Part shown: one piece after another, positions 19,048 through 44,612 of the stretch
Position numbering within the stretch: the first letter of the stretch is position 1
Layout: every line of letters starts with the position of its first letter
DNA from: Dirinaria sp. TL-2023a
Taxonomy: Eukaryota
DNA: 64,000 nucleotides
NCBI GenBank assembly: GCA_051941275.1
Contig: JAVEBF010000002.1
Location: 1 to 64,000 of the forward strand
Direction of reading: 5' to 3'
Notes under the pieces: model-generated
The model's database searches: none
The model's input: only the letters and a program-made list of their open reading frames with translations
Told to the model about the DNA's origin: nothing
Position numbers and translations under genes: made by a program

Positions 19048-21845
19048 TTAGTTTTCATCATTGACATTGAATTTCCTCCGATTTGTGCTGGTTAGATTTC
19101 GCAAGGCAACCTTATCAGCTTGTTTTCCCACTCTTCGCTGGATGTCTGCAACCTCTTGTTGAGAATTCATGGCATCTTCGGCGGTGAAGTCCAGCACCAA
19201 CTTCCTTCCCAAGAGATGGGTATCCTTAAGCGAGTCCATGGCGTTCTCGGCCTCTTTTGCGGTGATGAACTCTGCAAAAGCAAAACCACGACTCGACGAA
19301 TCGAACTTTTTGGGTAGACGAATTGAGCGAAGTTGACCGTAAGGACTGAACAGCGATCGCACCTGCTTCTTTGAGGCCTCAAAGGGTAGGTTCTTAATGA
19401 TTATTTTGGTTTTCCGCCCCATTGCTTTCTTTGCACTATCCTCCTTCCGACGTCCTTCCGCGACATCAACATCTTTGCGCGAGACTTGAAGATGGATCTG
19501 GTGGCCATCAAGATTGAAGCAATCCATTGCTTTCAAGGCCACTTGGGCTTGGTGTTTAGTACTGAATTCGAGAAAGCCAAAACCCATACTGAGTAATTGA
19601 CCTTGTTTCTTCGGGTTAGGCTTCATTTTCACTCTTGCTGATAGAAACCCCTCGAGCGGTCTAAACACCTCGTGCAAGCGATCCGTAGTGGTAGAAAAGC
19701 TGAGATTGCGTACGAAGAGGGTAGAGCTATCTACTTGTCTGTTCGAATTTGCGTCTTCGCGAACCATTATTCTACTTGACGGGTTTGCCGCCTTCCCATC
19801 ATCCGGGCGAGGCTCCGCCTCAAGGAACAAGTTCTTCGGCGCTTTTTCAAGAAACAAGATGGAGTTTTTGACCTTTCGATAGGCGAGGCCAGCGAAGGCA
19901 GACCGAGCATGGTTTCGGTCCTTGAATTCAACAATCGCAATAGTACCAGATGGTGGTACCAGCAATCCTGACAGTGGCCCATAGCTCTCGAAGAGCTCTC
20001 TGAGTTCGGATGCTTTCGTCTGGTATGAAAAGTTCTTGACAAGAATGCCAGTATCTCCTCGATCACTGTTTCCGAATGCATCCAGATTCACGCCATTGGC
20101 CGAAAAATACGCTTTGGTCGCTTGGATGTTGTGGGTCTCAGCATGAGCTTGCTTGACCGCAGCATCTGAAGACGAGGCATCTATCAGACTTGATTTGGCT
20201 ACGCCTAGCCGATCTGATACGGAAGATAGAACCGCGTCAGCCTAAATCTATGATCAGTTTGGAACATTTTTTATTCATCATGATGGAAAATCACTGACGT
20301 TCATGAACATTGCATTCCAATTGAAGGTTGAGAAAGCCGCCTCGGCTTTGCGCTTTATGTGTTGCTGCTTCTTATGTGGCAATTTGGAAACGGCAAATTC
20401 GTCGAGGCCTCCCAATTTCCTTTGTGCCGCAGGCGCGATATGCAGTACACGTCCTTGAAACGAGGTGCCACTCAAGTCGTTGAGAGCACACCGGGCAGCT
20501 TCAGGTTGCATGTACGCTACATATGCGTAGCCATTGCCTGTACCTGTTTGGCGATTCATAGACAGGCGTACCTACAACGTGTTAGATACAATGGCGAAGC
20601 AATAGAAAAAACTCATGGCTAAGAACCCAGATGTTTCGGCGTAAGGCTTTCAGACTTGAGATGCATCTACTAAATTGCTTTCCCTAGTGACATCATTTGC
20701 ATGGCATAAGCTGTCCCTATCAGGATATTCATCACAAACGCAAGAAGGAAAAAGATGACTTCGTTTGGGAATTGCCTTACCTCTTCGATTGAGCCGTAGT
20801 CGTAAGAATCGAAAAATTCACGCAAATCTTTTTCTGTTGTAGTGTATGGGAGGTTGCGGATGAATAGTCGACTACTATCTAATTCAGCTCGTTCTAGTTT
20901 GGGACCTTTCAATGTTTCATCGGGAAATATCTCTGTAGTAAGTTGAGCCTCAGTCTGAGTACTGATATCTAAGACTGAAGGAGCTGGCGGATCAATACGT
21001 GAATTACGTTCACCGTCGTTTAAGTCGGGTGCTTTTGACACCAGCGTTTCGTCCTCTTCGACCAGATCCAGGAGCCTGCTTGTTCTAGAACGAAGCCAGG
21101 CTGCGTCTGAGGTCGCAGTCTCTAGCTTTGTTGACCTTGCAGAAGCTTCGAGGGATTGGCTAGGACCTTGGACAACGTAAGCTTCTGCTAGGCCCGATGT
21201 TCCTTGGCCTTCTGCATCTACAGGGGCGCGCTGTTTAGATTGAGTGTCTTGATCCTGATAAACGTTGTTACCGTTGACCTCTGGGGGACAGTCGTGCTGC
21301 GTAGAGTCATGATCTAGAGAGTTGGGCTGGGATTCACGTTTCCCCACCGCAGCCGCATCCAGGATCGAACTTCTGTTTCTCATAGATGGTTCCAAATTTC
21401 TGAGAGAAGAGTCAACTTGAGAGTCGCTGGCCTTGCGCTTCCGTTTTCGAAGATTCTCAGAAGCAGTTGCATCCTGTACAGCAGAAATTACCCCGGTCGT
21501 GGCATTCTGATCGGCAGTGGTATCATGTTGTTGCAACATACGCTGGTCTTCAATCTGCCACCTGAGCGTTAGTCAATATACTTAACATTGTCGATTGTAC
21601 ATGCATAATCCTACCGAGCGAGCTAGCTCGACATTGATCCTGGTCATATTGATGAATGACCTGTTGTAGTATTTTACAGCTTTCAGAGCATCTGCCGGAA
21701 GTTTGTAACCTATATATGCTATTCGTTTGCGGGTGATACATTTTAGATCCGTAATTGGCGATAGTTTGGAAAAATGGTCTTGCAGCTCTTCGGAACGGAT
21801 GTTTGGAGGTAAACCTCGAACAAAAATCCGTGAAGACTCAGTCAT
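19048..21845 (-). CDS. MRD1: Multiple RNA-binding domain protein 1 (multi-RRM, 40S biogenesis)
   Basis: MTESSRIFVRGLPP start, multiple RRMs (RLFIRNLPY, TLFVRNLSF, KIIIKNLPFEA, RGFAFAEF), FNWNAMFMN motif. Confidence 0.93.
20646..20739 (-). ncRNA. Intronic box C/D snoRNA, snR64-like (25S rRNA 2'-O-methylation guide)
   Basis: Lies in the ~207-nt MRD1 intron. Box C GTGATGA (20735-20729), guide GATAGGGACAG (20721-20711) complementary to the conserved LSU rRNA sequence CUGUCCCUAUC, C'-like ATGATGT, box D CTGA (20653-20650). The snR64 identity is from recall. Confidence 0.8.
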
Positions 21846-34760: not shown

Positions 34761-35449
34761 ATGCTGAGGCCCGACCACCCTGCTCATGCGGAAGCCCCAG
34801 AGCGAGCGAGGCCCCAAGGCGAGACTGAGATATTAGATGCCCCCACGCCAGGCTATGAGCCGTGGATGTCACCATGTTGTACAAATTCTCATTGGTTTCT
34901 CAATGGTCGATGCCTCCATACAAGGATACGAACCGTGCGTGTTGCCAGTACGGCCAGGTTCCCATTGGCATCTGGGTGAGAGGATGGTCCTGCTCAACGC
35001 ACCGCTCGAGCACTGGACGAACCCATTTCTCAGAGAGCGATTGATACGTAGATAGCTAGTGAATGCGGTCGGCGTACAAGGTACCTGACAAGGACAACGC
35101 ACTGGGACCATCGTATGAACCGTGGGTATCACCCTATGGTATAGGCCCTCATTGGCTTCTCGATGGTCGAATGATCCACTTTGACGCACGTCCGGACGAC
35201 TGGACAAACCTCCGGAGGAGGGAACTCTTGATCCGTCGAGAGCGATTTGAGTACGACCGGCGCAAGCAATTTATGAGAAGTTCGACCCACTATGACCGTA
35301 TTCAAGAAGACTTAGATGGATTCAGAGAACGCCGACTGCCTATCCCTCTGCCTCTAGCAGCACAAGAACCGGAGATGCCTGGTTGGGCGCGGACCCTGGT
35401 GAGTTCCACTCTGCTTTTTGGAAAACAAGAGACTGATCTCCATGCGTAG
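34761..35449 (+). pseudogene. Degenerate orphan coding sequence with three internal peptide repeats in different frames
   Basis: GYEPWMSP..SHWFLNGR (34851), GYEPCVLP..SHWHLGERM..WTN..RERLIRR (34924) and SYEPWVSP..PHWLLDGRM..WTN..RELLIRR (35111), separated by a frameshift and a stop. Confidence 0.5.
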
Positions 35450-35991
35450 GCTCCCTTCTAGAAGGCCTGAGAGAATAGCGCACTTTTAGGTCGTGTCCTA
35501 ACCGAGATCAATTGCTAATTTGCACGCCCTTTTTGGGGAGGATATTCAACTGGCTTCTTTGATGGAGTTTGAGCGTTTGCGCCTTTGGAGGCAATATGTA
35601 ATATTACTTCTCCTTATGCACTCCATATGCCCCGGTAAGAAGGAATGCTCTTACTATTACCATCATCTACAGACGTAGCTGCTTGATTCGTATTTGTGAT
35701 CGCTTCAACGATTTGACGAGTAGACCATGGTTGCTCGTTGGTATACTGAGCCATCAATATTTCATTTATTCGTTTTTGTCTATCAGAGTCCCACTGCGGG
35801 TAAACCACCCTTCCCAATCTTCGTTACGTGTCTGCAGGGAAAGAGGGTGAGTTCCAATTTAATACAGAAGAGGTCAGAGTTATGCTTGCAATCGTAGTAA
35901 ATACCGTCATGTTAATGCAGAGTTAGATGCTTCTCTATTTAATATGTGAGCAATAATTATATTTAATTTTAACACAATTTATCAGAACTCA

Positions 35992-36119
35992 GCCTCGGTG
36001 GCGTAGTGGTAAACGCGTCAGTCGGCCGGTGAGGGAAAGGCTAGCCCGGACCCTCAGACAAGAAACGCCCCAAGGGGCAGACACGCCTGAAGACGGAGGT
36101 TCGAATCCTTCCCGAGGTC
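35992..36119 (+). tRNA. tRNA-like gene copy 1 (non-canonical anticodon arm with ~56-nt insert; identity undetermined)
   Basis: Acceptor GCCTCGG/CCGAGGT, D arm GCGT-AGTGGTAA-ACGC, T arm GGAGG-TTCGAAT-CCTTC, followed by an oligo-T terminator. Confidence 0.7.
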
Positions 36120-36328
36120 AAATTCTTTTTTTTTTTTTCTTTTTTTTTTTTTTCAATTTGTACTTCTACCCATCGAAACGTATCTAGAATCAAGATCAGA
36201 TTAATGCTCGCAAATATAGTGAGATAAATCATGTTCACGTAGATCACGATTCGCTGTTGACGCAGTGGTTCTCAATTTGAATGGATGCAATGATTATATA
36301 TAATTTTAAGACGGTTTTTCAGAACCCA

Positions 36329-36456
36329 GCCTCGGTGGCGTAGTGGTAAACGCGTCAGTCGGCCGGTGAGGGAAAGGCTAAACCGGACCCTCAGACCAGA
36401 AACGCCGATAGAGGCAGACACGTCTGAAGACGGAGGTTCGAATCCTCCCCGAGGTC
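36329..36456 (+). tRNA. tRNA-like gene copy 2
   Basis: Same cloverleaf arms, T stem GGAGG/CCTCC, oligo-T downstream; starts 337 bp after copy 1. Confidence 0.7.
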
Positions 36457-36662
36457 AAAGTCTTTTTTTTTTTCCTTCTTTTTTCATTTGTACTACTACC
36501 CATCGAAAAATATCCAGAATCAAGATCAGATTAATGCTCGCAAGTATAATGAGATAAATCATGTTGACGCAGAGCAGGATTGGCTGTTGACGCAGTGGTT
36601 CTCAATTTAATAATATGTGTGCAATGATTATATTCAAAATTAGCCGTGTCTATCATATTCAA

Positions 36663-36770
36663 GCCTCGGTAGCGTAGCGGTGGAACGCATCATTCGGCCG
36701 GGGGAGGGAAAATGGAACGCCCCTAGGGGCAGGTCGTCTGAAGACGGAGGTTCGAATCCTTCCCGGGGCA
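36663..36770 (+). tRNA. tRNA-like gene copy 3 (diverged, shorter insert)
   Basis: Acceptor GCCTCGG/CCGGGGC-A, D stem GCGT/ACGC, T arm as in copy 1, followed by an A-run and then a T-run. Confidence 0.65.
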
Positions 36771-38165
36771 AAAAAAAAAAAAATTTTTTTTCCCTTCTTT
36801 GCTTTCTTTTCGTTTCATAGTACCTACTAACTACTACCTACATGCATCGAAACATACATATCTAGAAGGAGATCAGAGTAATGCTCGCAATGATATCTTC
36901 TCATATCATCTCATGTAAACGCCTATGCTAAACTTGAACCATTTCCAGATTTGACGGCAGTGGGATCGATCTTTTGCATTGATACCAGTCAGAACTTACG
37001 TCTCTCAATATCTTTCCATTAGAGCCAAATTTATCCAGCATTCGCATCTTGAAACCAGATCAGCTAGCATTAGGATAAATCATAGAAGATCAATGCTGCC
37101 ATTCGATAAGTAGACTCTATCCAGCTTGCTTGTTGAAGGACAGCTTCATCTGAGTGGTGCCACGCTTTAGTAGATGCTGCATCTCAATCACACTCCGGGT
37201 CAACATCGCTGCCATGTATTATCAATATTTGCCAACTATCCCTCGCAAATTCCGTTGAAATTGCGCTCCAGTCACCTTGTCTATTAAATACTAGGCAGGG
37301 TTTGTGGTCAGATAGATCTACCTATGGCGACCTATCATAGAGCAGAGGCATGTAGGTGACGCGGAGAGCCTCCTGGAATCATCATGGTGTTCAATGATTC
37401 CCAACAATTTAACGTTGAGGTGTTCGTAGGGTGGCAGACAGAATTTTCTGCAATTTATTTTTTTTTTTTTTTTGCCCCGAAAAGGCCTTCTCAAATATCA
37501 ACATGTTTCTGATATTGATTGATTTTGAACAACGCTTTATATAGCTATCAAAAGTGCAAGACAGTTGAGTAACCACGGAGCTACCTTACCTATAGTAAGT
37601 CATGTACATGTAGGTAAGGTAAGGTGCCCTAAACATGTGTAACCCTACCTAGCTCTGAGCTACCTCATGGTACCTAGCGTTGGCTATTGAGGCAGCTAGC
37701 TGTTGACGGAATGCTATAATCGTTGAGTAATAAGTCATGAATACTAGGATTGCTTTACAATACGTAAGTCACGGTGCTGAAAGCTGGTATCCTTCGATTT
37801 GTGTATCACTTTGTTGGTATTTAGGGTTGAATGACTAATCGGTTAAAAATGCCGTGCTGCAAAAGGTCATGCACTGTGATAAGCAACGGGACCTCGTCAG
37901 AAGCATCTACAACCCAGACATCATGTGTCGACTACTCTCAAGCTGTGGTCATCGTGGAGGTTCCGATCTGTCCACACAAAGAATGAGTCAGGCCGAGATC
38001 TACCGAGCTCATGGGTCATCCTCCTCGAACATAGTTTGTCTACTGAGAATCCACCAGGCATAAAAGGTCTTTACAGCGCTCTGGCAACGCTGCAGTGCTG
38101 TGAGCCCGACATGGAGGTCCATTGGTGCAGCTAAAACTTCTAAATCCTTACACATATCGAAGAAC

Positions 38166-41100
38166 ATGGCCTACTTCATACCGTCCTTCATACAGAAGCG
38201 TATCTTACGTTATGTCCTTTCGCATCTTGAGCTCTTGGAAACCGAAGACTTTGATCTTGACAACTTAAATATAGAATGGGGAAAAAGAAGCTCGGTCGAG
38301 CTGCGTGACCTTGGGATACGGATACAGAAGCTTTCTACCCTCCTGCAACTGCCACCTAATTTTCTATTAGTCAAGGCCAAGGTTTCGCTACTACGAATTA
38401 CCGTCCCCGCCGATCTATACAAAAATGGAATCTTGATCGAAGCAGATGGCTTAGAATTAAGGCTGGATGCAAGAGAGAACGAGAAAGGCAAAAGCGACCA
38501 GCAGAGGGTGTCTCCGAAAGACGGTGAAAGACTGGGTCCAGACAAAGGTGAATCGGACCAAACAAGGAGTAACCAATACCATGTACACGATCCCGGAGGG
38601 CATAGCCAACCTTCCACGAGGGAGCATAATGCTGCGGGCAGGAGGTCTTCAGACCACTTGCCGACCGCTATCGACTTAGCAGAATCGTTCTTGGAAGCTG
38701 AGCCGCAGCCAGAAAAAGCTAAGTTGCATAGCGCGCTTGCACAGTCCCAATATGCCGATCAGTCTCAAATCATTGGCGAATATAGTGAAAATGCAGCCGG
38801 TTTGGGTGTAGGGGCTGGTATTTCCTTGCCCGGTTTTGTTGCCGACTTTTTAAAAGGGATTGCAAATCGGGTTCAGCTCATTATACGGAATACAGACGTG
38901 GATCTAGCGGTTGACCTGATGATACCATCTGGAAAGACTGCTGCGGAAAATTCGCAGAAGGCAGAGCAGGTGACGCTGAAACTCAGTGTTGGAGAGGTCG
39001 CACTGGACGGCATTACTGATACACCATCGGCACCAGCTGGTGACAGCAAGGAGTCCGAGAGCCAGTATCGTCAGGGTCCAGAACGATTGCTGCCAAAAGA
39101 GAGCCTCCGGCGCATAACGCTACGAAGACTTAAGGGCATGCTGGTTGCTGAAAGCTCTTTGTTCACATACCTGATCCGTTGTAATGTTCCGCCTTCTCCA
39201 AATACTACGCAATCTAGCGCAATTCGGAGGGCCAACACAGAAAATTCGTCACCGAGCTTGCCCCTAGGCACATCAGCTTTTGGCGCTGAGATATACACAA
39301 GTACGCCCGTGATTCGGGAAGCAACATCCTACCTTCACTCTCCGACCTCTCTCCCAACTTTGCATTTGAACCAGTATCAAAATGAGGATGTGCAGAATCA
39401 ATCTGTTGTAACGTCCACGCGGCCAGACAGTTCTGATCTCGGCTCGAGTCAACCTCAACAGAATGATATGAAAGATTCAATTTATTCGGACTCTCGATCT
39501 AGTCATGATAAGCAAAGTCCTCTCAGTGATATACCTGGATCTTTCTCTCCACCGCACACCTCGAGGAGCAGCCACAGCTTTCCAGAAGAACTGTTCGTAG
39601 ATAATCCAAGCTTTGTGCAGAACGAGACTTCTGGTCAATACGTTGACTCTCCTTTAAATTCATCGAATCAAGCCTTGGAGAGCGGTCAAAACTCCCCACA
39701 GCTTTTGACCCTGGCTCAATCGAAGCTCTTCAGCCACGAGGAAGCTGAAAGTATGTACATGAGCGCCATGACTTACCCTGCATCGGGAGAGCAGAGCGCA
39801 TTTCGCTCATTGAAAAAGATGCCAGGCGACTGGGGAGACTCTGGCTCCGAAGATGAGCAACGTACAGTAGACAAGGAGCAGGCGAAGATGGATGCAACCG
39901 GCGAATTAGCATCTACGGAAAATCCCGGTAGCGGTCTAAGGATACGATCTTTGTATTCGGATACTCCAGAGCTTACAGCACCCCAGCGGGCTGACCAGGA
40001 GTCTACTAGGGAAGAGTCAATACAGTCGATATTTGCAAAGCAAGCTGATACCACTGTTACGGCTGCCTCTACATCCTCTCAACAGGCTTCATCAAATAGT
40101 TCCCAAGCCAGTTCCTCGAAATTCGATCGTGGATTGCTGGTTGTGAAGGAAATTTTCGATGTAGACGTCGTCGTCATCGAGCTTTGTGAAGCCATAATCG
40201 CAAATGAAGACAGTGTTCAACTTAGTAAAAGGCACCAACCTCCGTCCGAACAGCATGAGCCAGGCTCAGGATCGGCAAGTACTAGGTACGGACCACGAAG
40301 GTCGGTGAAAGTAGGGGCTGTCACTATCCTAGGTGACCTGGGGCTCACTAAGCTAGCAATTATCACTATCCAGCGATTTGTAGAACTGCTGAAGCCAGCC
40401 TCCCTCGGGCTTGCTAATAAACCGGAGTCGAAAAGGTCGTCCAGCCGGATAATGATTCGCGTCAAGCGATTCTCATGGCGATTTCTTGACCTTGTAAGGG
40501 GACTGAGCACATCGTGCCCTTCGACTTCGTCACCGGACCTTCAACCTGCAGGAAAGCCGGATGATGCTGAGGTACTGCTGAAGGCTGTCATTCTAAATTT
40601 GAAAATAAATCTGGAAAGAGACGGACTGTCATCCTCATCCGTTGTGTCAGTCGGTAAATTCAGCTTTGGATATGCCACTGAAAACGTCATCTCCTTCGAT
40701 TCTGGATTGAAATTGAGGGAGTCTACACGCGACATTCTAGCGCCGATTGATCAAGATATGATATTGAAGATCACAGAATCGCCACATCACAGGCATTGGG
40801 AATTGACGACCTTACCCTTGCACATTAGACTTGACCTACGCCGATTGGATGAAACTTTCAGCTGGTTTGGCGGGTTCAGCAGTATTATCGGTTTAGGAAA
40901 TTCTATGATGTCAACAATCACGGTTGTGGATATCAGCCCAAATCCAAGTCGGCCCGCCAGAAGTGCTCGAGGGGTCCATTTCGAGCACGAACCACTGCAG
41001 AGCCGGCCTCTGGTATCTGAGGTCGATTGCAAACAGAAAATCACCATTAGATTTGGCAGTGTCGTCCTTGATTTTGAGGGTGCTTGCTGCTCCTTCCGAC

Positions 41101-44100
41101 TAGAAAGTACAGCTGTCAAAGTGGTGAGTCGTGAAGAGGGCATCGGGTTGGCAGTCGATCGGCTCAACCTCACTGGGCCAGATCATGGTTCTGACGCCTC
41201 TACTTCCTCGATTAATGCCAAGCTAATAGCGCTACGCGTCGAATACCTAACGACTCCCAAAGACGTTGATTTGGCTCGTTTGCTTGGATTACTCTCTCCT
41301 TCAAAAGATGGATACAAGGAGGAAGATGACGATATACTGCTCGGAACTCTGTTTCGCCAAAGACGCCAAGGTGGTGTTGTCCGTGTCAATGCTGAGAGAG
41401 TTGAGTTTGGGGTCCTTGACATAGAAGATCTCCACTGCTTGCCTGCCCTTGGAGAAGAGATGAAGAAACTATCTACCGTTGCGAAATATCTTCCAGCAGA
41501 CGATCGGCCTGGCATCATGACTATTTTGCTGGTTCGAGAGCTACATGCTCAAGCCAAATTCCTGGAAAACGTTGGTACCTTACAACTTACAGCAAAAAAC
41601 GCCGAGGTGGCTCACATTAGTATTCCAAGTCTAGTTGCTTTGGGCATAGGGAAGCTAAGTGTTACACGGAATTCTTCCGAAGAGCTTCTAGGAGAGGCTG
41701 AAGGCGCTTTTGTTGACAAAGCATCGCCTCCAACGATCATGGCTCGGTACGTTGGCAATGAGTTGGAGCCTACTGTAAAGATACGTCTTTACAGCCTCCG
41801 TGCGGAATATCACGTCTCAACGATTACCTTAATGCTGGGCCTCCATGAAGAGGTGACGCAAGGAAAGTTGGCAAGCTTGGCTTCTTCTATAGCTACCGTA
41901 ACAGGCCAGCAGCGAGCAAGGCGATCACCTCCCCAGCTCTCCGCTCGAGCGTCGGGTAAGAGCGATACCTGCACGGTGGGCTCAAAGACTTTGAAAATAG
42001 ATTTTGCACTCCGAGATGTGATCTTAGGGCTAAATCCACGCAACTCACCTGCACGGGGTCTCCTTGTACTTACTGACGCTCACCTCGTGAGCACATTGCC
42101 AAAAGATGAATTGGTCAGCGCTCGTCTGGAGATCAATAAGGCCTCGCTGTTGGCTATCGATGATGCGAAGAACGTCATAGTGCCCAATTCTCCATCAAAG
42201 CGCGTTTGCTCCAGCGGTCAAGATAGTCAAATGCAACATTTGTTAGACAGAGGCTACGTGTCGTTGAGCTACGTCTCCGCAATTAAAGCGACTTTAGAAG
42301 TCGTCAGATCAGCTCTGGAAAATGGCAAAACGGTCGAGCTTGAATTGCGCGATAATTTACTTGTCATCGAATCATGCGCAGACTCGACACAGACTTTGCA
42401 GGCCATCCTTAACGGGCTGCAGCCGCCCTCTCCATCTAACAAAGAGCCAAGGTTCAGGACAGAAGTCGTACCTGTTGAGGACATGCTTGCTTCATTCTCG
42501 GGGAAACCTTTCGTGGCCCCTGGTCAGGATAACAGCCAAGATGCGAATGTATCTCTTGAACTGGACGACGCCGACATGATGGAAGACGATGTGCCTCAAA
42601 ATCTTGAATTTGTGAGCAGCTTTTACAATCCAGACCCTATTTCTCTGAATGATAGTATTGCACAGAGCATGTTAGAGGGGGATCTCGAAGCCTCGCCAAA
42701 ACCTACAGCAACTCGCAACATTGGAGACAAACCACTGCTCGAGAGCTTTCAAGACCGTTTTGAGGTTGCTCCCAACGAATCAACACTCCACTTTCGCGAT
42801 GATCATTTTGGTAATAATTCCAGTGTTGGAGGAACTGCCCACAGGTGGAATGTCAAGAAGAACACCTACGAATTGACAAATGAGCCTCAGATTCGTGCAA
42901 GCCCGTTGAGGGTTCGCGTCAGAGATGTCCATGTCATTTGGAATTTGTTTGACGGTTATGATTGGCAGAAGACCAGGGATGCTATTAGTCAAGCTGTAGC
43001 AGCTGTCGAAGAAAAAGCCACTGAGCAAAGGTCGAAAAGACATCAGCGCCAATCTTTGGATGCCGAAGAGGAGGAAGAATCCGTAATTGGGGATTTTCTC
43101 TTCAACTCAATATACATCGGCATCCCTACTAACCGCGATCCAAAAGAATTGAGTCGTCAAGTCAACCGTAACATTGACGATCTCGTGAGTGAAACAGAGA
43201 GCTATGCAACGTCTTCAGGGTCGGGATCGCCCAGTCGCCAGAGCCGCGAACATCGCTCCAAAGGCAGGAGGCTCCGACTTCGTCGCAGCAAATACCACAA
43301 GATGACATTTGAGCTTAAAGGCGTTTCAGCGGATATGATGGTGTTCCCTCCTGACTCTGGGGAGACTCAGAGCTCGGTTGACATTCGCGTAAATGATTTT
43401 GAGATATTTGACCATGTGCCGACATCCACTTGGAAGAAGTTCGCAACATACATGCATGATGCAGGCGAGCGTGAAAGCGGTACCGCTATGATCCACCTCG
43501 AGATCTTGAACGTAAAACCCATTCCCACTTTGACTGCATCAGAAATGATCCTCAAGGTACGCGTTCCTTGAATCTTTCATGGGTCTTTAGCTGACTGCTG
43601 AATGTAGGTGAATATACTACCACTCCGGCTTCACGTAGACCAAGACGCGTTAGACTTCATGATGCGGTTCTTTGAGTTTAAGGACGAATCAACACTGGTT
43701 ACGAACTTGAAGACGGAATCTCCCTTTCTTCAGCGAGTCGAAGTACAATCAGTACCGGTGAAACTAGATTTCAAGCCTAAACGTGTTGACTATGCAGGTC
43801 TTCGCTCTGGACATACGACTGAATTTATGAACTTCTTCATCCTCGATCAAGCGGATATGGTACTCCGCCATGTCATCATATACGGCGTCTCTGGATTTGA
43901 CAGGCTGGGGAAAACGCTGAACGATATATGGTCACCGGACGTCAAACGCAATCAGCTTTCTCGTGTCTTAGCCGGGCTTGCACCTGTACGATCGTTGGTA
44001 AATGTCGGTGGCGGGGTCAAAGACCTTGTCGTAGTCCCAATCCGAGAGTACCGGAAAGACGGCAGAGTAGTGAGGAGCTTCCAGAAAGGTGCGCTAGCTT

Positions 44101-44612
44101 TCGCGAAAACTACTACGAGCGAGCTCGCCAAGCTGGGAGCTAAACTTGCCCTCGGTACTCAGACTGTTCTACAAGGCGCCGAAGGGTTCCTGGCTCCGGA
44201 TAATCAGGGACCGGATTTGTCATACGGCTGGGAAGAAGCGGAGTTTGAGGATGAAGACAGAAAGAAAATCAGTCTGTACGCTGACCAGCCGGTAGGTGTG
44301 GTGCAGGGTTTAAGAGGTGGCTACGCGAGTCTGGAGCGAGATTTGCTCATGGCCAAGGATGCCATTGTAGCAATGCCTGGCGAGGTGATGGACAGTGGGT
44401 CAGCCGGCGGTGCAGCTCGAGCCGTGCTTCGAACCGCGCCCACGGTAATCCTAAGACCTGCTATGGGAGTGAGCAAAGCAGTGGGACAAACGCTGATGGG
44501 AGCGACGAACAGTTTAGATCCTGCCAATCGTAGGAGAGCGGATGATGTGAGTGTTCTAGATTCTGCACAGATCAACGCTGACCGTTGCCGCCAGAAATAC
44601 AAGCGGCATTGA
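38166..44612 (+). CDS. ATG2: Autophagy-related protein 2 (lipid transfer protein), 3 exons
   Basis: N-terminal chorein-like [60 protein letters not shown]. Introns at ~43557-43607 and ~44546-44594. Confidence 0.95.

Follow-up and report, generated by a model that had tools for sequence, protein, structure and literature searches.

Three tandem tRNA-like Pol III-type genes with an enlarged, non-canonical anticodon arm in a fungal nuclear locus

Three tRNA-like genes arranged in tandem on the forward strand, with start-to-start distances of 337 and 334 bp, raise the question of what a tRNA gene may become when 43-64 nt occupy the place of tRNA positions 32-39, which are eight bases in a tRNA. 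Such genes might be drifting relics, sites that matter as DNA, tRNAs that decode after splicing, or templates for an RNA of another kind. They lie in a window of 64 kb, the whole stretch of DNA that was analysed, which is fungal nuclear DNA with an intronic Afu_335 snoRNA and an ATG2 gene. The array is positioned between an unannotated region and ATG2, and the repeat comprises a whole unit of ~335 bp, the gene together with its surroundings. The reading favoured here, with a probability of roughly 45%, is that the genes specify a tRNA look-alike RNA that would be made by Pol III, processed by RNase P and RNase Z, CCA-tailed, non-decoding and probably uncharged. The coordinates of all features are collected in Table 1.

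The Rfam tRNA model RF00005, which has a gathering score of 29 bits, matches all three copies end to end (model positions 1-71 of 71) in a 1-kb search, at the scores given in Table 1. The alignment skips 65, 65 and 46 nt at the anticodon loop of copies 1, 2 and 3, where the model has 9, 9 and 11 positions, and the scores of the three copies exclude this loop stretch. An Rfam scan of the whole window lists two of the three copies, copy 2 being absent because the speed filters lost it. Standard pairs make up 20 of the 20 cloverleaf pairs in copies 1 and 2 and 19 of the 20 in copy 3, with 59 of 60 stem cells paired overall, and U8, A14, GG18/19, A21, G53, T54, T55, C56, A58 and C61 are kept in all three copies. 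A 3' CCA is not encoded in the copies, as is usual in eukaryotes, and the acceptor and anticodon stems may resemble those of elongator tRNA-Met. The first-pass annotation had described three tandem copies at this spacing with their acceptor, D and T arms kept, and the coordinates and distances read in the sequence, together with the Rfam matches to all three copies, bear this description out.

Table 1. Positions of the tRNA-like genes, their parts and neighbouring features in the 64-kb window.
Feature	Positions	Strand	Remarks
tRNA-like gene copy 1	35992..36119	+	128 nt; Rfam tRNA 47.8 bits, model 1-71/71, 65 nt skipped
Parts of copy 1	tRNA positions 1-31, 35992-36022; stand-in for 32-39, 36023-36086; tRNA positions 40-73, 36087-36119	+	stand-in of 64 nt
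tRNA-like gene copy 2	36329..36456	+	128 nt; inserted stretch 36360-36423; Rfam tRNA 50.0 bits in 1-kb search
tRNA-like gene copy 3	36663..36770	+	108 nt; inserted stretch 36695-36737; Rfam tRNA 47.4 bits, 46 nt skipped
A-box-like element	copy 1 35999..36009 (TGGCGTAGTGG); copy 2 36336-36346; copy 3 36670-36680	+	read from sequence
B box GGTTCGAATCC	copy 1 36098..36108; copy 2 36435-36445; copy 3 36749-36759	+	exact in 3/3
TATA-like element, -35 to -26	copy 1 35957..35966 (TTATATTTAA); copy 2 36294-36303 (TTATATATAA); copy 3 36628-36637 (TTATATTCAA)	+	
Insert hairpin	copy 1 36067..36078 (GCCCCAAGGGGC); copy 2 36404-36415 (GCCGATAGAGGC); copy 3 36719-36730 (GCCCCTAGGGGC)	+	
T13-C-T14 run	36126..36153	+	begins 7 nt past copy 1
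T11 run of copy 2	36463-36473	+	read from sequence
A run of copy 3, then T8	A run 36770-36783; T8 36784-36791	+	read from sequence
20-nt spacer block GATCAGAKTAATGCTCGCAA	35872-35891; 36194-36213; 36524-36543; 36871-36890	+	3 mismatches in the first block, 0 in each of the others
ATG2 (autophagy protein 2)	38166-43571 and 43659-44612	+	two long exons; PF13329 1-1384 and 1399-1694; complete
C/D-box snoRNA, Afu_335 family	20648-20739	-	Rfam 79.7 bits, E 1.5e-11

The stretch that replaces the anticodon loop is partly shared by the copies. Each of them opens it with the 17 nt CGGCCGG-N-GAGGGAAA and carries a GC hairpin in it, and the insert of copy 3 is 21 nt shorter, the missing part being the middle of the insert. 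The hairpins described earlier were all located in the sequence, together with the pairing of TGAGGG with CCCTCA in copies 1 and 2 and of CGGCC with GGTCG in copy 3. Comparison of the copies does not support the accompanying proposal of a structured module conserved in the expanded arm. The alignable insert diverges by 11-13%, similar to the flanks (copies 1 and 2 differ at 8 of 64 insert positions and at 32 of 182 flank positions; p = 0.43), and copy 3 has lost its 21 nt. The four pairs of the hairpin are formed in 11 of 12 cells, the inner pair being lost in copy 2, where four changes fall within 12 nt and one of them breaks a pair. Compensatory, double-sided changes occur among the three copies at 0 of 26 pairs, so that covariation evidence is absent. 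These features fit an enlarged arm whose exact sequence probably matters little.

Several further identities for the insert were considered and rejected. For a C/D-box or H/ACA guide, the insert has no proper C box, and no other Rfam family appears at E 0.05 on either strand; the other rows of the 1-kb Rfam search are mascRNA-menRNA (E 0.06) and CrcZ (E 0.9), with none besides. A spliceosomal-type intron could be drawn from GTGAGG...CAG in copies 1 and 2, but copy 3 is without the GT. A hammerhead-like CUGANGA consists of the 3' strand of the anticodon stem and the variable loop, and Rfam gives no match to a hammerhead.

In the comparison of copies 1 and 2, the body of the genes differs at 1 of 64 positions, as against 32 of 182 in the alignable flanks (Fisher p = 0.0005), and the diverged part of the insert lies between the two near-identical halves of the body. 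Gene conversion could account for the identity of copies 1 and 2, but selection on the body is favoured over a single conversion tract, because the diverged insert splits the identical halves. In the two comparisons that involve copy 3, the body is not better kept than the alignable flank, the two differing at 6 of 63 and 35 of 185 positions (p = 0.11) and at 7 of 63 and 24 of 193 positions (p = 1), and this rate test depends on the alignment, because a gap-poor multiple alignment made the flanks look more diverged. Relative to copy 1, copy 3 carries eight body substitutions, six of which are transitions; they spare all invariant positions and break one rule, at pair 30-40. In a simulation of 50,000 trials, random sets of eight substitutions do as well in 2.8% of cases when transitions are favoured 3:1 and in 0.3% when no bias is applied. 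All three acceptor- and T-stem substitutions keep pairing, in agreement with the earlier view that the substitutions largely preserve the stems, with pair 30-40 as the sole break. Partial constraint on the tRNA body has moderate statistical support, and selection, on the favoured reading, would act on the body and not on the sequence of the inserted arm. Thermodynamic folding is uninformative here: the folding-energy z-scores are -0.27, -2.55 and -1.10 for copies 1, 2 and 3, those of copies 1 and 3 being not unusual, and the cloverleaf lies 3.1-6.5 kcal/mol above the unconstrained optimum. The unconstrained minimum-energy fold of copy 3 departs from the normal cloverleaf.

Homologues were sought in metagenome, prokaryote and viral collections. 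In the metagenomes, a pattern made of the insert's start and the 3' half gave 0 matches, and a second pattern, the D arm with the 5' strand of the anticodon stem, gave three loci, all of which were rejected as chance matches without tRNA shape. The specific pattern gave 0 matches in prokaryote genomes, and viral contigs likewise gave 0 matches. A further scan, with the T arm and the 3' strand of the acceptor stem, returned at least 115 stretches, and among the matches listed, ARAGORN places at least 76 in bacterial tRNAs (Asn 34, Gln 34, Arg 5, Leu 1, Ala 1 and Lys 1). The matches in bacterial tRNAs are convergent and uninformative on parentage.

The same observations bear on the main alternative, judged somewhat less probable than the look-alike RNA, that the copies are decaying pseudogenes, that is, a tRNA gene that was disabled by the loop replacement, duplicated twice as a ~335-bp unit and left to drift without function, the similarity of copies 1 and 2 being the result of recent duplication or gene conversion. 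Decay of this kind is consistent with a repeat unit that is the whole 335 bp and not the gene alone, with a body divergence from copy 3 of 9.5-11% where the alignable flank reaches 12-19%, with an insert that evolves like the flanks and carries a 21-nt indel, with a discriminator base and a 1-72 pair that are not conserved, and with the lack of a homologue in the metagenome, prokaryote and viral collections. It sits poorly with the near-absence of body changes between copies 1 and 2, where a diverged insert stands between the conserved halves, and with the eight substitutions of copy 3, which spare all the invariants and break one pair (p ~0.003-0.03); in addition, all three copies still score 47-50 bits.

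Each copy has what a type-2, tRNA-type Pol III gene comprises: an A box and a B box within the gene and, downstream, a T run (of 13, 11 and 8 T in copies 1, 2 and 3). Measured against the A-box consensus TRGCNNAGTGG, the A boxes of copies 1, 2 and 3 have 0, 0 and 1 mismatches, and the B box, when one mismatch or none is allowed, has four matches in the window compared with ~1.03 expected by chance. The A box, B box and oligo-T runs that had been claimed for the array are all found, with the B box exact in every copy and a T run after each gene. The T runs would, from their position and length, act as Pol III terminators, and the TATA-like element is a putative upstream Pol III promoter element. 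Downstream of copy 3, a run of 14 A precedes the T8, whereas copies 1 and 2 instead have AAA, a few other bases and the T run; the A14 run could be a slippage expansion and, given the tandem arrangement of the units, does not speak for retroposition. The spacers contain a 20-nt block with four matches compared with 0.01 expected by chance, which is better kept than its surroundings; one block precedes each tRNA-like gene by ~120-140 nt, and a further one follows the last gene. This block could be a binding site or a piece of another small transcript. Weaker echoes of it, GATCAG...ATAAATCAT...GATCAATGCTGCC, are present at ~37060-37100.

Budding yeast tRNA genes and tRNA relics can act as boundaries or as regulators of neighbouring genes, and the units might similarly be kept as TFIIIC/Pol III sites on the DNA, for example as a chromatin boundary or as a regulator of the neighbouring gene ATG2, with the RNA irrelevant. 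A and B boxes that are perfect or nearly so in all three copies, and a conserved TATA-like element and 20-nt spacer block that accompany each unit, would be in keeping with such a role. Nevertheless, a DNA-level element has no need of stem pairing, yet each of the three acceptor- and T-stem substitutions keeps a pair, and the conservation between copies 1 and 2 extends to positions beyond the boxes; a role of the DNA alone is accordingly considered improbable.

A separate matter is whether the genes could decode. The anticodon region reads C32-G33-G34-C35-C36-G37 in all three copies. In its default mode, ARAGORN finds 0 tRNA genes in the 64-kb window, and no tmRNA, for which it also searches. 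In its intron mode, it calls Val-GAC, Ser-AGA and Gly-GCC for copies 1, 2 and 3, and all of these calls depend on an intron at a non-canonical site (32/33, 31/32 or 38/39) and on an odd arm. When every single-intron removal that leaves a 5-7-5 anticodon arm is considered, giving 18 registers in each of the three copies, U33 is present in 0 of 54, and the canonical cut at 37/38 would leave the loop C-G-G-C-C-G-G. A canonical anticodon loop is impossible in these genes, and, as judged from these sequences, none of the three copies can be an ordinary decoding tRNA.

The same region departs from the usual signals for splicing. In eukaryotic pre-tRNAs, according to the available part of PMC10275265, loop nucleotides base-pair with the intron, position 32 being matched to its third-last base, and a bulge-helix-loop results. 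In copies 1 and 2, C32 faces a C at the third-last intron base and the anticodon-intron pair is absent. Copy 3 could form a C32-G pair, but in that register positions 33-35 are unpaired, and the fold is instead a continuous helix that runs through the 3' splice site with no bulge, so that the bulge-helix-loop as set out in the available part of PMC10275265 is found in 0 of 3 copies. The first-pass annotation had read C32-G33-GCC-G37 without U33, had noted that copies 1 and 2 are without an anticodon-intron pair, and had argued against an ordinary intron-containing tRNA, and each of these statements agrees with the present results. A spliced decoding tRNA, from which introns of 56, 56 and 35 nt would be removed at 37/38 to leave the loop C-G-GCC-G-G, with a Gly-type GCC next to G33 on a foreign body, is highly improbable, because although all copies share the seven loop nucleotides and G38 and differ in the interior of the insert, and the anticodon of copy 3 can pair with the end of the intron and its C32 with the third-last intron base, no register restores U33, copies 1 and 2 are without the pair that splicing would use, the discriminator is C in copies 1 and 2 and A in copy 3, and the ARAGORN calls disagree among the copies.

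The ends of the acceptor stem bear on charging. Position 73, the discriminator, is C, C and A in copies 1, 2 and 3, and the 1-72 pair is G-U, G-U and G-C; because both vary among the copies, no single synthetase identity is kept. The pair 3-70 is C-G in all copies, which also counts against a tmRNA, for whose alanine charging a G3-U70 pair would be needed.

Taken as genes for a non-decoding tRNA look-alike, the three units would be duplicates of one tRNA-derived Pol III gene, and the loop replacement would predate both duplications, because the insertion is common to all copies. Transcription would begin with TFIIIC on the intact A and B boxes, with the TATA-like element at about -30 assisting, and Pol III would then transcribe the unit and stop in the T run. 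RNase P, RNase Z and the CCA-adding enzyme require only the acceptor/T-arm half of a tRNA, and they should accept this transcript and treat it as a tRNA, because its acceptor stem, D and T arms, elbow and core nucleotides are intact. The product would be non-decoding, having G33 in place of U33 and no consistent anticodon and, in copies 1 and 2, no standard splice signals. Charging by one synthetase would be unlikely, because the discriminator base and the 1-72 pair vary between copies. The product is most likely a stable, uncharged tRNA look-alike of ~108-128 nt plus CCA; its transcription, processing, stability and cellular role are what we infer from sequence, and it could serve as a decoy or partner for a tRNA-binding protein.

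A more specific version of the look-alike reading, put forward tentatively and with some doubt, is that the copies belong to a lineage-specific fungal family of Pol III tRNA-like RNAs, in which the body would be selected, the arm would be enlarged (from CGGCCGG...GAGGGAAA to the GC hairpin) and the CCA-tailed, non-decoding product would act as a mimic or as a dedicated partner of a tRNA-binding protein. If true, this family, which has not been described previously, would be the equivalent of mascRNA or of the tRNA-like Y RNAs in the nuclear DNA of fungi.

Stand-alone Pol III-type tRNA look-alikes that have an intact body without a usable anticodon are, to our knowledge, hardly documented in fungi, and topical literature searches found no description of such a fungal RNA. 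Among the closest parallels are the tRNA relics and unconventional Pol III units of budding yeast, such as ZOD1, which keep A and B boxes, are bound by the Pol III machinery and give no usable tRNA. They resemble the present genes as tRNA-derived loci with A and B boxes and no usable tRNA; however, these relics are not known to fold as a cloverleaf, whereas all three copies described here have an intact cloverleaf and intact core nucleotides. YrlA-type tRNA-like Y RNAs are similar in design, with additional RNA in place of the anticodon loop of a retained tRNA body. These RNAs are bacterial, whereas the present locus is fungal and nuclear, with three paralogues and no covariation.

The mascRNA and MEN-beta RNAs (RF01684; treated in PMC11693755) share a tRNA-shaped top half that is usable by RNase P, RNase Z and the CCA-adding enzyme, as well as a non-decoding anticodon arm and the absence of aminoacylation, all of which are predicted on the fungal side. 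These vertebrate RNAs are ~60 nt long and are released by cleavage from the 3' ends of long Pol II transcripts. The fungal copies, in contrast, are stand-alone genes that have A and B boxes and T runs of their own, and their arm is enlarged. Membership of the mascRNA-menRNA family was rejected, as RF01684 matches copy 3 only, with a score of 22.8 bits (E = 0.06) that falls short of the gathering score of 42.5. An alternative pairing peculiar to copy 3, between the GCCCC strand of its hairpin and the 3' strand of the acceptor stem, can give a mascRNA-like mini-cloverleaf (36719-36769, forward strand).

Intron-containing eukaryotic pre-tRNAs, in the account given by the available part of PMC10275265, are alike in having an interruption in the anticodon arm, and the end of the copy 3 insert pairs with loop nucleotides as an intron would; compared with that account, the fungal copies differ in having no U33, no 3' splice site in a bulge and no consistent anticodon. 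AfuSINE2, in the available part of PMC5063351, is likewise tRNA-derived, with Pol III boxes, a low copy number and an ascomycete host. Its boxes are described there as degenerate, its 3' region as unrelated to tRNA, its insertions as flanked by target-site duplications and its heads as not folding into a cloverleaf. Unlike AfuSINE2 as described in that portion of the paper, the fungal copies carry their extra sequence inside the anticodon arm, have an intact 3' tRNA half with a terminator directly 3' and are tandem. A tRNA-derived SINE was rejected on the same grounds, the intact 3' tRNA half, the directly adjoining terminator and the tandem 335-bp units, with dispersed copies sought within the window. 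Nothing similar to the array is described in the available parts of the Aspergillus small-RNA paper PMC2377427 and the AfuSINE2 paper PMC5063351, and a literature search with a 10-nt string from the window gave only unrelated primers among the matches listed. The locus is best filed, as a provisional placement, as a tRNA-derived and probably non-decoding variant of a Pol III gene.

If the genes are expressed, they would offer a simple system for the function of an uncharged, non-decoding tRNA mimic in a eukaryotic cell and would show the origin of such RNAs from tRNA genes. If they are silent, they would be an unusually well-preserved pseudogene cluster and a caution for automated tRNA annotation, given that ARAGORN misses the copies by default and yields three different false isotypes in intron mode.

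The surroundings of the array contain open reading frames without a Pfam family, a solute symporter and, ~1.4 kb downstream, ATG2; no synthetase-like or tRNA-dependent enzyme is present within ~15 kb of the array. Over the last exon of ATG2, the nearest database proteins are 71-78% identical, those named being from Thelocarpon, Pyrenula and Aspergillus egyptiacus, that is, from lichen-forming fungi and Aspergillus. The source is accordingly placed among the Pezizomycotina, as a filamentous fungus with no close relative in the database searched. The Afu_335 snoRNA lies within an open frame with an RRM domain, and in the available part of PMC2377427 the A. fumigatus Afu_335 snoRNA is placed in an intron of Afu1g04840. 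Upstream of the array, at ~34860-35200 on the forward strand, two similar stretches of ~100 nt, ~240 nt apart and sharing the motif ...CATTGG(T/C)TTCTC(A/G)ATGGTCGA..., lie in open reading frames without a Pfam family.
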